Under the pieces are notes generated by a model. It was given only the letters and a program-made list of their open reading frames with translations. It did no database searches and was not told the origin of the DNA. From the sequence record PQ571306: a DNA stretch of 42,072 nt; one strand, given 5' to 3'. The DNA is from Shigella phage phiSD1. The position numbers and the translations under genes are program-made. Below are positions 15,756 to 20,697 of the stretch, piece by piece; the stretch's first letter is position 1; every line of letters starts with the position of its first letter.

Positions 15756-16997
15756 TTATTCTAAATCTTCTTCACTAACCTGATTCCACTCAGGACGTTT
15801 GTCGTCTGCCGTTGCGACGCATGGCGCTCCAGGCTTACGGGTGATGAAGTCTTTCAGTTCTTCTTCCGGTATAACTTTAACAGCTTCGGTCGGTGACATG
15901 AGCACTTCTTTAGTCAGCTTGTCGCTGTAGAGTTCTGCTACTTTCTCTGCGTCTTTCCACGCACGGTTGCCCATCTTACCCTCAACCAGCTTGTACCCGG
16001 GCACTTTCTTACCGGAATGCAACGCGGCGGCCATCGCTTTCTCAACCTTGTCGATGTGCTGGCGCAACAACGGCAACTTCTCATACTCAGCCACGAGTTG
16101 CTCTGGTGTCAGTTCCAGCGCAAAGTCGTCCTCTAGTTCTTCCGCCAGTACAGAATTAACCGTCTTTGTACGCGCGGCGCACTGTTCAGAGAACCGGCAC
16201 CACTGACAACCATCGACAGACGGCCTGAAGTCCGACGCTTTCAGGTTCTTCTTGCCGCGGAAATAAGCATCAAGGGCTAACAGCGCGCGTTTCTGTGCGA
16301 ACTTAGCAAACAGTTCCAGACCTTCGACCGAGATGTCCCACTCGGACGCGCCACCAGCGTACGGCTGGAAGATTACCAGACGAACAACTGTGATGTTATA
16401 TCGTCTCTTGAGGCGGCGATAAACACCGAGAGCGTATAGCATAAGCTGTTTGTTTTCTTTTGCTTCAACACGATGCCGTCCTGTTTTCAGGTCGCCGATG
16501 ATTAGCATGCGCTCGTCGGTGTTAGCCAGTTCCTGAACGGCAACAAGGTCAGCGGTTCCGAACGTCTCAACGCCTTCATACCCCGGATGCAATACTTCAG
16601 TAAGATTGACGCGCATTTCCAGCTTGGCGTAAGTCGCTACGTCGATAATCGCCTTGCAGTAGTCCGTGTACTTGCGCACCTGCTCAATCATGTCCGCCGT
16701 AATCAGTACCACGCCTTTCATCGGACTGATTAGCGCCTTAATCTGGCCTTTACCCTCATCCAGAACATAAGCGCCAACTTCGCGCTCTAACGGCAACGCG
16801 GTGCCTTTGATGTACTGGTTAAGGTGCATCTCTGCTATGGTGTGGCACGCGGTACCTGTAACGGCAGCTTTGCCGGACGTGTTAGGAATATCTTTTTCAC
16901 AGGCCAGTGATGCAGCGCATGACAGCCATTTTTTAGCACCTGACGGCGACAGTAATGCGTGAACATCGTTATTGCCGCCGCGTTCTTTTAAAATCAT
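15756..16997 (-). CDS. Cas4/RecB-like PD-(D/E)xK exonuclease with Cys cluster (DUF2800-like)
   Basis: GDLKTG and QLMLYA motifs, C-terminal CQWCRFSEQC plus N-terminal Cys; start at Met6 with ATGA coupling to upstream ORF. Confidence 0.6.
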   Translation of the reverse strand: MILKERGGNNDVHALLSPSGAKKWLSCAASLACEKDIPNTSGKAAVTGTACHTIAEMHLNQYIKGTALPLEREVGAYVLDEGKGQIKALISPMKGVVLITADMIEQVRKYTDYCKAIIDVATYAKLEMRVNLTEVLHPGYEGVETFGTADLVAVQELANTDERMLIIGDLKTGRHRVEAKENKQLMLYALGVYRRLKRRYNITVVRLVIFQPYAGGASEWDISVEGLELFAKFAQKRALLALDAYFRGKKNLKASDFRPSVDGCQWCRFSEQCAARTKTVNSVLAEELEDDFALELTPEQLVAEYEKLPLLRQHIDKVEKAMAAALHSGKKVPGYKLVEGKMGNRAWKDAEKVAELYSDKLTKEVLMSPTEAVKVIPEEELKDFITRKPGAPCVATADDKRPEWNQVSEEDLE

Positions 16998-17266
16998 GCC
17001 CTGTTCTCCCACTGGTCAATTAGATGTCTGGTCTGGTGCTGGCAATGCATAGCCCAGCTATACATCGACTCGAAGACATAAAAGTCAGGTTTTGCGAAAG
17101 TCGTGCGCTTAATCTGCGACACGTGACGGCCTATATCTTTAGGCCGCGGTACTTTGCCTAAGTACGCCATCTCTTCCATCTGGTGCGCACCGGACGGCGC
17201 ACGCAATAGCCATAGCGCCTCTGTGTTATCCCGCCTGTCTACGGCGCGATAGAGTTGGTAAATCAT
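16994..17266 (-). CDS. Hypothetical protein (90 aa)
   Basis: ORF between terminator-like hairpin and nuclease gene. Confidence 0.4.
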   Translation of the reverse strand: MIYQLYRAVDRRDNTEALWLLRAPSGAHQMEEMAYLGKVPRPKDIGRHVSQIKRTTFAKPDFYVFESMYSWAMHCQHQTRHLIDQWENRA

Positions 17267-17285
17267 ATTTCTGACCCTCAGTTAA

Positions 17286-17308
17286 AGCGGCCCTAAGGCC
17301 GCAAGACA
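17286..17308 (-). terminator. Possible attenuator hairpin (gcggcc-ctaa-ggccgc)
   Basis: GC-rich hairpin; weak T-run. Confidence 0.3.
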
Positions 17309-17309
17309 G

Positions 17310-18147: not shown

Positions 18148-18162
18148 CGCCCCTTTCTTTTT
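18136..18162 (+). terminator. Rho-independent terminator after Cro-like gene
   Basis: ggggc-ttaac-gcccc followed by tttcttttt. Confidence 0.6.
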
Positions 18163-18164
18163 AC

Positions 18165-20405
18165 CTATTCCAAATCCTCCTCTGTAACCACCAGCATTTC
18201 ATTTGGTTCGTATATTGTCTTCGGTCTTAATCTGTCACCCATCTTTTCCGGTATCCGGTATGTGCCTGGCATAACTTCACCGTTAACATCGCACCCGAGC
18301 ATCAACTCCCCGTCTTTCAGCATCTTCTCGAGATGGTGGTTGGTGATGGCGTGGTCGCCCGAGTTCGCTACTATCTGCCGTTGGGTAAAACCTCGTCCGG
18401 TGTCGTCAGACTGTTGCAGGTCTTCCAGCGCGGCGAGTATGGATTCCTTACGTCCTCCATCCTTCCCGCGTTTTACGGCATTCTTTACGTTTTCTTTACC
18501 TTCCTTTGCCAGCCCTTCTTCCCGCTCTTTCTCCTCGTCAGTTTTGAACGGCTCGAAGCCCCACGGCATCAGCACAAGCGCCTTGTGCGGTTCCGGCAGG
18601 TCGAGGTTTACGATTGTGCCGTATTCCTCTGTGCTACCGAGGAACTCAACCGCACGGTACTCTTTCGGTGGTGGCGCTTCACGGAACTGTACCGACTCCA
18701 GCACCATGCCAACCGTCTTCTGTTGAGGCCCATGCTTAAATTTAGAGTGGTATACGTTTATCTGACGGTCAGTGGCGCGTTCGATTGTCAGTTCCACGTC
18801 GACGCCCGCATACAGCGCCCCACTACCGCGGGCTTTCTTTCCACCCTTCGGTGTATGGTGGACGACGCCCACCGCGGCTTTAGTCGCATCACGTACTTCT
18901 TTCAGGATGGCGATAACTTTACCCATACCGATTGCCGTTGATGAGCTGTTCTCGTCGAACTTATCAATCGTCAGGGCCAGGGTCTGGTTAAGGGTGTCGA
19001 ACGCGACCATGCCGATAGGTTCATCGCCCGCAGTTTCGCGCATTAACTTAATCAGGCTTTTAAGTTTGCCGACTTCGCCCATGTCGATGACGTGTACATA
19101 ATCTTTACCCTCTGCGCCGTATTTAGCCGCGAGCGCGTCAATACGTGTACGTGTGGCTGCGCCCCCCTCACCGTCGATATAGAAGTGGTGGCAACGCTGC
19201 GTGTCAGCGCCAGCAAACCGGTATCCGGCGGCGCTGAGATACATCATACCCAGCGTATAGAATGATTTGTACGTGCCTGATTCCCCAACAATATCCCATA
19301 TGCAATCCGACGGCATGTACCCTTCAACGACGAAATCAGCCTTTACCGGTTCCGGCAACTCGCCCTCCTCTGAGTCTTCGTCATCTTCCAGGTCGTCAAG
19401 GCTGCATGAAACGGACTCCCGCGCGCCCCAACCGATAGCCTCTGCCACCTCACTGAATGGCAGCCCAGTTGCATCGCACGCATACTTCCACACCTCTTTC
19501 GGAGACATGCCTTCAGTTGTCGTAATGTCGGTGTCATGAATCATTGTTACGTTCGGCGCTTCATACCCCTCACGCGGGAAGCATAGCAGGAAGTCGTCCG
19601 GGCGAGGGGTCGGGTCGCTGTAGTTCTCTGCGTGTTCTGGTGTAGCTGGCATCTTAAGGCCGCGTGGTGTCATGATGCCGCCGTATTCAAACGCCAGTGC
19701 CTCGAACGCATCGGTAAACACGGTGCGCAGTTCTTCCGGTATCTGGTAATCCGATGCGCTGCTAACGTCAACGGCGGGGATGCCTTCCAGTAACTCGTCC
19801 GGGTCAATCAGGTCGTTGCGACGCGACCAGATAACGGTAGAGCCAACTGGCGGCAGGTACATCGGCTGGGACAGGGTAAAACCGCTGCGGTCGGCGCCCA
19901 TACCTTTGAAGAAGTGTTCCAACAATCCATGGCGAACGCGGATGATGTCGCCGCCTTCAACAGGGTGGCCCAGCGGCATGACGACGCGAAAGCGCGGGGA
20001 CTCATCGGTATGTGATGCCGTGGTATAGAGACACATAGCCCGGCGGCTGCGCTTAACCAGGCGCACCGCTTCCTGATACTCTTCCGGCGTTGCGTTGTCG
20101 AAGTCCAGATACGCCAGCGACGATTTGCTTACAGACGCGTCGCAGCGATAGAAAAAGCCTTTACGCGCCTGCTTAAAGTCTCCTGTTTCCGGGTCTTTTA
20201 CGGTGCTGTGCGTCGAGTCACACGCGGCAGTGATATAACCGGGCGCGGTCTTCGGGTTAATCCCATCACGAACAGCATCGAGCGGCTGGGTTAACTCTTT
20301 CAGGTCGTCCAGTGTTGCCGTGTGTGTAGTTCTGACGTTTATATCCTTTTTCTCTGCCCGCGCGTTGCGACGAGACCACGAGTAGGATAAAATTACATCG
20401 GACAT
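18165..20405 (-). CDS. Primase-helicase (AEP-type prim-pol N-domain + RecA-like ATPase)
   Basis: YLDFDN (DxD) and SHTDE...RFRVV motifs; Walker A GESGTYKS; 746 aa. Confidence 0.6.
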   Translation of the reverse strand: MSDVILSYSWSRRNARAEKKDINVRTTHTATLDDLKELTQPLDAVRDGINPKTAPGYITAACDSTHSTVKDPETGDFKQARKGFFYRCDASVSKSSLAYLDFDNATPEEYQEAVRLVKRSRRAMCLYTTASHTDESPRFRVVMPLGHPVEGGDIIRVRHGLLEHFFKGMGADRSGFTLSQPMYLPPVGSTVIWSRRNDLIDPDELLEGIPAVDVSSASDYQIPEELRTVFTDAFEALAFEYGGIMTPRGLKMPATPEHAENYSDPTPRPDDFLLCFPREGYEAPNVTMIHDTDITTTEGMSPKEVWKYACDATGLPFSEVAEAIGWGARESVSCSLDDLEDDEDSEEGELPEPVKADFVVEGYMPSDCIWDIVGESGTYKSFYTLGMMYLSAAGYRFAGADTQRCHHFYIDGEGGAATRTRIDALAAKYGAEGKDYVHVIDMGEVGKLKSLIKLMRETAGDEPIGMVAFDTLNQTLALTIDKFDENSSSTAIGMGKVIAILKEVRDATKAAVGVVHHTPKGGKKARGSGALYAGVDVELTIERATDRQINVYHSKFKHGPQQKTVGMVLESVQFREAPPPKEYRAVEFLGSTEEYGTIVNLDLPEPHKALVLMPWGFEPFKTDEEKEREEGLAKEGKENVKNAVKRGKDGGRKESILAALEDLQQSDDTGRGFTQRQIVANSGDHAITNHHLEKMLKDGELMLGCDVNGEVMPGTYRIPEKMGDRLRPKTIYEPNEMLVVTEEDLE

Positions 20406-20463
20406 GTTGTATTTCCTTCAGCAAGTAATTTAGCCTCGGCGTTCACCGCGTCGGGGCTTTCTT

Positions 20464-20697
20464 TTATTCCAGGTCTTCTAAAGTGGCCGCCATTCCGCGA
20501 ACTTCAGCAACGGCACTATATTTCCCGCCAACGTTTTTCACGACACCATATTTAACCAGCGCCTTTAACGACCCTTCAATAATGGCTGAACTATAGTACT
20601 TAAAATAACTACGGCGCAAGTCGATAACGCTGCACGACCCTTTTTTACGTGTTAATGAAACGACCGCCGTGAATACACGTGACTGGAACTCGGTCAT
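20464..20697 (-). CDS. Hypothetical protein (77 aa) with C-terminal LEDLE
   Basis: ORF coupled to upstream gene; shares C-terminal EDLE with primase and nuclease. Confidence 0.45.
   Translation of the reverse strand: MTEFQSRVFTAVVSLTRKKGSCSVIDLRRSYFKYYSSAIIEGSLKALVKYGVVKNVGGKYSAVAEVRGMAATLEDLE

Follow-up and report, generated by a model that had tools for sequence, protein, structure and literature searches.

Acidic C-terminal tails are textbook tethers of the replisome in phage T7 and on the bacterial single-stranded DNA-binding protein (SSB), where they are known from one or two proteins. In T7, the acidic tails of the helicase-primase gp4 and of the SSB gp2.5 bind the same basic patches of the DNA polymerase gp5, and loss of the tail lowers processivity. 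The gp4 tail peptide has been seen on gp5 in entry 6P7E of the Protein Data Bank (PDB) (PMC12593628, PMC12339929). The T7 sequences end in DTDF (gp4) and DGDF (gp2.5); the exonuclease gp6 carries no such tail. When gp2.5 lacks its terminal Phe, suppressor mutations map to gene 5. For the SSB of phage Enc34, a DUF2815 protein encoded by open reading frame (ORF) 6, the tail was treated as a feature of the SSB only, with no mention of the same DEDEV-type end on the Enc34 primase, nuclease and ORF3 (PMC5686142). A gene module duf2800-gp2.5-polA has been described for many phages (PMC8093625). The replication cluster of Shigella phage phiSD1 is such a module. It was analysed in sequence record PQ571306, a stretch of 42,072 nucleotides referred to as the window. 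Four proteins of the cluster, a gp2.5-like SSB, a DUF2800 resection nuclease, a primase-helicase and a protein of 77 amino acids (p77), share a short acidic motif.

The motif, (D/E)(D/E)-L-(D/E) with the consensus [VA][ST]x[DE]DLE, is read here as a short linear docking motif of the SSB-tail type which addresses one phage-encoded receptor. A probability of about 0.6 is given to this reading. An earlier note on positions 15756-20697 had reported EDLE-COOH on the primase-helicase, the nuclease and p77, and a DDLEDDEEDE stretch near the C-terminus of the SSB-like protein. Both observations are correct: the ends read VVTEEDLE, QVSEEDLE and AATLEDLE, all on the minus strand, and the SSB stretch falls within residues 182-209, which are predicted to be disordered. 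The SSB gene (15025-15654) lies just outside that interval. Up to six sites on the four proteins bear the peptide:

15759-15782, minus strand: copy 1, C-terminus of the nuclease, QVSEEDLE-COOH, beyond the end of the Pfam domain (residue 407)
16116-16154, minus strand: copy 2, internal in the nuclease, SVLAEELEDDFAL, residues 287-299, in an interdomain linker immediately C-terminal to the Cys cluster
18168-18227, minus strand: copy 3, C-terminus of the primase-helicase, VVTEEDLE, the last eight residues of the 20-residue end RPKTIYEPNEMLVVTEEDLE-COOH
19371-19409, minus strand: copy 4, linker between the primase and helicase domains, SCSLDDLEDDEDS, residues 333-345
20467-20490, minus strand: copy 5, C-terminus of p77, AATLEDLE-COOH
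15058-15096, minus strand: copy 6, behind the oligonucleotide-binding (OB) fold of the SSB, VASTDDLEDDEED, followed by the basic end APRRERRRR

The phiSD1 SSB and T7 gp2.5 belong to one fold family. As in T7, SSB (ASTDDLEDDE) and primase-helicase (VVTEEDLE) carry a matching acidic, disordered tail with one key hydrophobic residue. Unlike the terminal Phe of T7, the anchor in phiSD1 is a Leu in the second-to-last position, followed by Glu, and the SSB copy is internal and precedes a basic end. Phe is the very last residue in none of the phiSD1 tails, which end in L-E or, on the SSB, in RRRR. The motif is also found on the resection nuclease, the predicted winged-helix protein p77 and two interdomain linkers, whereas T7 gp6 is free of it, and the phiSD1 receptor is putative. 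The SSBs of the Enc34 ORF6/DUF2815 type (PDB 5odj, 5odl; 4klk, 4jg2) resemble the phiSD1 SSB by profile (PF10991), by Foldseek (E about 1e-9) and by a disordered acidic tail; the phiSD1 protein differs in its RRERRRR end. The tip of bacterial SSB (DDDIPF) likewise combines an acidic stretch with a hydrophobic anchor in a disordered tail and serves multiple partners. There, one carrier has many readers, whereas in phiSD1 many carriers would presumably have one reader, and the sequence is different.

A chance origin of the common tail is excluded. EDLE occurs three times in the 63 called proteins (12,126 residues), and all three occurrences are C-terminal. A C-terminal tetrapeptide common to three proteins arose in one of 200,000 within-protein shuffles, and the analytic expectation is 1.2e-5. 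The consensus [VA][ST]x[DE]DLE has four matches in the six-frame ORFs of at least 30 residues, one for each carrier protein, against 0.01 expected. The motif-bearing peptides of the four carriers are NEMLVVTEEDLE, EWNQVSEEDLE, RGMAATLEDLE and VVASTDDLEDDEED. Residues 188-209 of the SSB read ...ASTDDLEDDEEDEAPRRERRRR, with ASTDDLEDDEEDE placed nine residues ahead of the basic end. The linker copy SCSLDDLEDDEDS of the primase-helicase shares 10 of its 13 residues with the SSB copy. The family A DNA polymerase has no match to the seven-residue consensus. Its LADDDLPDD was considered as a seventh copy and rejected, because it belongs to a structured, conserved linker in which DL is not conserved.

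Selection acts on the peptide. The EDLE codons differ among the copies (Leu TTA, TTG or CTG; Asp GAT or GAC; stop TAA or TAG), which rules out a repeated DNA element or a regulatory element at the DNA level. Where relatives retain EDLE, synonymous variation affects the stop and each of the four codons: Glu is GAA or GAG, Asp GAT or GAC, Leu any of five codons, and all three stops are used. The SSB motif (15058-15096) and the linker motif of the primase-helicase (19371-19409) agree in 22 of 23 nucleotides, GACGACCTGGAAGA[C/T]GACGAAGA; this match could be due to codon bias or to a small gene-conversion event.

Absence or variation of the tail in close homologues had been named in the earlier note as evidence against a common function. 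Neither is seen: about 85 genomes of Kagunavirus, Jerseyvirus, Dhillonvirus and related phages retain the tail. The sample comprised 87 loci with 2,730 ORFs and with nucleases 46-99% identical to the phiSD1 nuclease. An acidic DL motif plus zero to three residues ends nearly all nucleases and primase-helicases of these loci, even at a primase-helicase identity of only 25-33%. Tails of the DL type occur on 176 of the ORFs, and 170 of them are primase-helicases (78), nucleases (65) and p77 homologues (27). The other six include three or four small ORFs of the same module (KKEDLE, TATDEDLE). In an alignment of 14 nucleases, down to 35% identity, D416 and L417 are invariant together with the catalytic and Cys residues. 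Among 39 SSBs (44-97% identity), conservation of D192 and L193 is 90% or higher, the rest of the tail being free in length and charge pattern. The p77 tail is retained in Jerseyvirus orthologues (69% identity) and in variants of 30-32% identity that end in RDLE or HDLE. Conservation extends to the internal copies. The nuclease copy reads [TA]x[DE][DE]L[EGSA] in all lineages compared, at a position where the wider DUF2800 consensus is FxDL, and the linker copy of the primase-helicase reads Cxx[DE]DLx[DN][DE] in proteins with 25-33% overall identity. The last 20 residues of the primase-helicase are identical in Kagunavirus alleles that are otherwise 27-32% identical (loci L018, L022, L027, L033, L035 and L037), owing either to a mosaic recombination junction in the 3' end of the gene or to strong selection on the tail. 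A DUF2800 protein of 758 residues (P0134) has a 350-residue N-terminal extension without a Pfam domain and still ends in TDDDLSD.

The tail changes between lineages and is shared within genomes; in remote phages that have the module, its carriers are SSB, nuclease and, in many cases, the primase. The following forms were found:

Kagunavirus/Jerseyvirus: nuclease E[EG]DLE, primase-helicase E[EG]DLE, SSB S[TV]DDLEDDE, p77 EDLE
Klebsiella phages of the VLCpiS11a type: nuclease ASDEDLS, primase-helicase ASDEDLNS, SSB NDDDLSDD
Dhillonvirus: nuclease ATDEDLSNE, primase-helicase ATDDDLKD, SSB SDEDLDND
Yersinia phage YeP6: nuclease AESLI, SSB AESLI (four of five codons differ), no tail on the primase
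Enc34, Salmonella phage BP12C and Klebsiella phage N137: nuclease acidic run plus V (DDDEV), primase DEDEV, SSB DEDEV, small upstream protein EEEEV or EEDDV

A bipartite tail, DDF[DE]D[IVL][ST] followed after about ten residues by [DE]xL[IV]-COOH, is common to nuclease and SSB in 56 non-redundant IMG/VR loci. The identity of the last four residues of nuclease and SSB within these genomes was reached in none of 20,000 between-genome permutations, a statistic that takes no account of kinship among the loci. Partial sharing occurs in phages of Staphylococcus (DDFD[EK]L), Streptococcus (DFL[ND] on SSB and primase), Bacteroides (LSDF[DE]) and Caulobacter (EFA[GN]L). HMMER pairs the DDL of Guernseyvirinae with the DDF of the Bacillus cereus DUF2815 structure 4jg2 (AADDFTTIEDD). 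Given this pairing and the comparison of the dialects, EDLE is best seen as a probable local, Leu-based form of the SSB-tail motif.

The SSB is assigned to the T7-type gp2.5/DUF2815 family by profile, predicted OB fold and acidic disordered tail. It matches PF10991 (E=4.7e-11, 43 bits against a cut-off of 26) and phrog_112 'Gp2.5-like' (E=3e-32). In the AlphaFold2 (AF2) model, residues 1-181 form the OB fold with a predicted local distance difference test (pLDDT) score above 80; residues 182-209, which include the motif, are disordered (pLDDT about 40). Foldseek matches to 4klk, 5odl, 5odj and 4jg2 range from E 1.4e-9 to 6.9e-8. The basic APRRERRRR (15025-15057) behind the acidic motif is expanded in relatives (L003, L005, alignment A5) to two or three alternating acidic and basic blocks; a polyampholyte tail of this kind is unusual for an SSB.

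The profile, the catalytic D...D/E-x-K and a four-Cys cluster identify the nuclease as a member of the DUF2800/Cas4-RecB-like PD-(D/E)XK family. Its likely start is the ATG at 16997, giving 413 residues, the length of homologues with at least 95% identity. Across 86 sequences, D155, D174, K176, C32, C272 and C278 do not vary, and conservation of C269 is 90% or higher. The Dhillonvirus orthologue has a disordered C-terminus, and in the Dhillonvirus Bas14 the activity of the DUF2800 nuclease (B14T) triggers the retron type IX (Sen3) defence (bioRxiv 10.64898/2026.07.14.737667). The nucleases of Jerseyvirus L002/L007 and Dhillonvirus L005/L072 contain an insertion of about 55-60 residues directly after the internal acidic motif, at the equivalent of position 16116 or thereabouts. 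Some records of these nucleases have an HNH homing endonuclease annotated at or near the gene.

For p77, the AF2 model (mean pLDDT 86, residues 1-66 above 90, tail 55-66) suggests a small winged-helix protein. The best Foldseek matches are winged helices of the LexA/IdeR/MotA type at E>=0.015, which holds at the level of the fold class only. A paralogy of p77 with the C-terminal domain of the primase-helicase was rejected (BLASTP E=0.35, matching an internal ALEDLQ only).

The existence of the motif, its non-random occurrence, conservation, selection at the protein level, disorder, sharing within genomes and change between lineages are established. A short and disordered peptide with an invariant hydrophobic anchor between acidic flanks, selected as protein, displayed by many carriers and co-varying among them has the profile expected of a docking motif with one co-evolving receptor. 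The proposal of a common docking tail in the earlier note is thus supported by conservation, co-variation within genomes and predicted disorder, in parallel to the tails of T7 gp4 and gp2.5. The motif would be displayed in disordered tails and linkers of the gp2.5-like SSB, the DUF2800 nuclease, the primase-helicase and the small winged-helix protein. One phage-encoded receptor surface would read all copies, with the conserved Leu taking the role of the C-terminal Phe of T7. Proteins that create or first bind single-stranded DNA would in this way be tethered to a common hub, where they may compete or hand over. The most likely receptor, named tentatively, is a patch of basic and hydrophobic character on the phage's family A DNA polymerase. 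Analogy with T7 favours it, and so do two features of the polymerase: it belongs to the replisome core and bears no copy of the motif, and in 65 of 70 remote loci it comes after nuclease and SSB.

Several points weigh against a docking motif with a single receptor. Binding by the motif and its receptor are both inferred, and the permutation statistic on tail identity ignores the shared ancestry of the loci. The primase is without a tail in several remote lineages (YeP6, Caulobacter RLK, Bacteroides), so that the set of carriers is not fixed. Bas14 escapers with a truncated nuclease are viable; the nuclease is dispensable for plaques, and at least that copy of the motif is therefore non-essential (bioRxiv 10.64898/2026.07.14.737667). 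The front basic patch of the T7 polymerase, K587-R591 (VKWKRRW), corresponds to VKFSR in phiSD1, where two basic residues are kept, in a distant and uncertain alignment. The internal linker copies might be structural elements and not docking sites. A docking of the SSB motif in cis finds no support in the AF2 model, in which the tail is disordered.

The same docking motif may have a different receptor, the ssDNA-binding groove of the gp2.5-like SSB, which is a possible second candidate ranked behind the polymerase. By mimicking DNA, the tails would let the nuclease, the helicase and the winged-helix protein each carry an SSB molecule and release it onto the strand that they expose, and the SSB's own copy would serve self-inhibition or cooperativity. 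Crystal structures of Enc34 ORF6, of T7 gp2.5 and of two further DUF2815 proteins show the acidic C-terminus in the concave beta-sheet of the neighbouring molecule (842 A2 buried), a contact that may be non-physiological, and removal of the tail lets the SSB bind double-stranded DNA (PMC5686142). The T7 gp2.5 tail has been docked in its own groove by AF2 (PMC12339929), but AF2 leaves the motif of the phiSD1 SSB disordered. The tails of the Enc34 primase, nuclease, ORF3 and SSB are nearly one peptide, so that a binder of one tail can bind the others. The tail is also shared by SSB and nuclease in more lineages than by the primase, which fits an exonuclease-annealase pair. The present evidence fits the polymerase as receptor equally well. 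It is improbable that there is no common partner at all, each acidic tail folding onto the DNA-binding surface of its own protein in a generic autoinhibition, or the similarity stemming from small recombination events. DNA binding is common to all carriers, and autoinhibition by acidic tails is frequent; the 22 of 23 nucleotides common to the SSB and helicase-linker copies and the position of the primase-helicase tail at a mosaic junction would suit recombination. However, generic electrostatics leaves unexplained the invariant Leu and the matching of tails on non-homologous proteins in at least seven lineages. The three C-terminal copies use different codons, and p77 is no paralogue of the helicase C-terminus.

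Docking of the tails onto a host protein is likewise unlikely. The tails could mimic the tip of bacterial SSB (DDDIPF) and recruit or block the host enzymes that interact with SSB, or they could act as a clamp-binding motif. E. coli SSB ends in DFDDDIPF, and the beta-clamp-binding motif is defined as QL[SD]LF or QLxLxL. The widespread ancestral form DDF[DE]D[IVL] does resemble the E. coli tip, and tails of Staphylococcus and Streptococcus phages end in DFL. In phiSD1 the IPF tip is missing, no copy contains P-F or fits D-D-D-[IL]-P-F, and neither clamp pattern is matched, as the copies are without Gln and without the second hydrophobic position. Moreover, phages of closely related, near-identical enterobacterial hosts carry unrelated tails (EDLE, DEDEV, AESLI) that match within each genome, which points to a co-evolving receptor encoded by the phage rather than by the host and makes a degron read by a host protease unlikely. 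The degron had been offered as the alternative in the earlier note. In this reading, a C-terminal signal would determine how fast the replication proteins are degraded, and either a host protease or the product of a phage HslV-like ORF would recognize it. Exposed, C-terminal motifs and an HslV-family peptidase annotated nearby in a relative are compatible with it. ClpX/ssrA-type degrons have non-polar last residues (e.g. LAA-COOH) and work at the extreme C-terminus only. The phiSD1 tails end acidic, half of the six copies (those in the SSB and in the nuclease and helicase linkers) are internal, the dialects differ among phages of the same hosts, and the position is equivalent to that of SSB tails. 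A degron is accordingly very improbable. The HslV-like ORF itself (23592-24029, plus strand, 145 residues, beginning MTTIAFDG) is called 'HslV family peptidase' in the annotation of a relative. It has no Pfam match, and comparison with PDB chains of BPH and HslV gives E values of only 0.13-0.24. Of 53 Kagunavirus/Jerseyvirus loci, 18 have the ORF; all other groups lack it, including the tail-carrying Dhillonvirus and Klebsiella-phage groups. With weak structural matches and this distribution, it was rejected as receptor or protease.

New with respect to the T7 and bacterial precedents are the form of the motif, its carriers (resection nuclease, predicted winged-helix protein and interdomain linkers) and its generality in lineage-specific dialects. 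The open literature on DUF2800 and DUF2815, including the Enc34 SSB paper, a survey of single-strand annealing proteins in Firmicutes and the retron IX preprint, contains no report of tails shared by SSB, nuclease and primase. The phiSD1 cluster has the same gene module as the duf2800-gp2.5-polA phages (PMC8093625) and as Bas14 with its B14T nuclease, the retron IX trigger. Neither a shared tail motif nor a role for the disordered C-terminus of the nuclease is given in PMC8093625 or in bioRxiv 10.64898/2026.07.14.737667. The module of thousands of phages of Proteobacteria, Firmicutes and Bacteroidota might use a lineage-specific 'address peptide' on SSB, resection nuclease, primase-helicase and small DNA-binding proteins for one receptor, a generalization put forward with reserve. 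The DUF2800 family had 11,845 cluster representatives at E<=1e-3 in a representative search. If the generalization is true, the dialects (EDLE, DEDEV, AESLI, DDFDDI...DLI, LSDF, DFL) would form a compatibility code that keeps the parts of the module together in mosaic recombination, and they would define a hub of SSB-tail mimicry that has not been described previously. In phiSD1 the carriers include a RecB/Cas4-like nuclease and a putative winged-helix protein, and the principle is met again, with other peptides, throughout a phage replication module that is very large and has been little studied. Shared tails could explain why the genes of the module travel jointly, and they may help to make sense of the disordered C-terminus on the nuclease trigger of retron IX. 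A short tail would be a cheap and direct handle on the hub of these replisomes.

The 6 kb surrounding the tail genes are 88-92% identical to Kagunavirus (Guernseyvirinae) phages of Escherichia; Escherichia and Salmonella relatives number hundreds. The cluster comprises the following genes:

10201-11631, minus strand: SNF2 helicase
12118-12447, minus strand: VRR-NUC nuclease
12785-14965, minus strand: family A DNA polymerase (Pfam PF00476/PF01612)
15025-15654, minus strand: gp2.5/Enc34-type SSB (DUF2815, Pfam PF10991)
15756-17012, minus strand: DUF2800 PD-(D/E)XK (Cas4/RecB-like) nuclease (PF10926, E=2e-69; PF12705, E=5e-9)
between nuclease and primase-helicase, minus strand: two small ORFs, p90 and p165 (p165 at 17310-17807)
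17932-18147, plus strand: HTH_3 repressor-like gene, between p165 and the primase-helicase
18165-20405, minus strand: primase-helicase of 746 residues with an AAA_25 RecA-type helicase domain at residues 353-522 (Pfam PF13481; phrog_3228 'replicative helicase-primase', E=3e-298)
20464-20697, minus strand: p77, predicted winged-helix protein of 77 residues with a flexible tail (phrog_5169, unknown function)
same gene cluster, minus strand: HTH_17 protein

A near-consensus promoter of the sigma-70 type (11 of 12 matches) lies at 15751-15723 on the minus strand, directly 3' of the nuclease stop codon. GC-rich hairpins are found at 18136-18156, 3' of the primase-helicase, and at 20432-20458, 3' of p77. 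Each of the three genes with a C-terminal tail thus closes a transcription or translation block. A second near-consensus sigma-70-type promoter (11 of 12 matches; 17867-17839, minus strand) precedes p165 and is divergent from that of the HTH_3 repressor-like gene (17856-17883, plus strand). The p165 protein, encoded upstream of the nuclease, has the acidic C-terminus KNKYFEEE; similarly placed small proteins of Enc34, BP12C and N137 carry the local shared tail (EEEEV, EEDDV). A putative gene for 41 residues at 22625-22750 on the plus strand encodes the C-terminus GVSEEDE, which resembles the nuclease tail minus its Leu.

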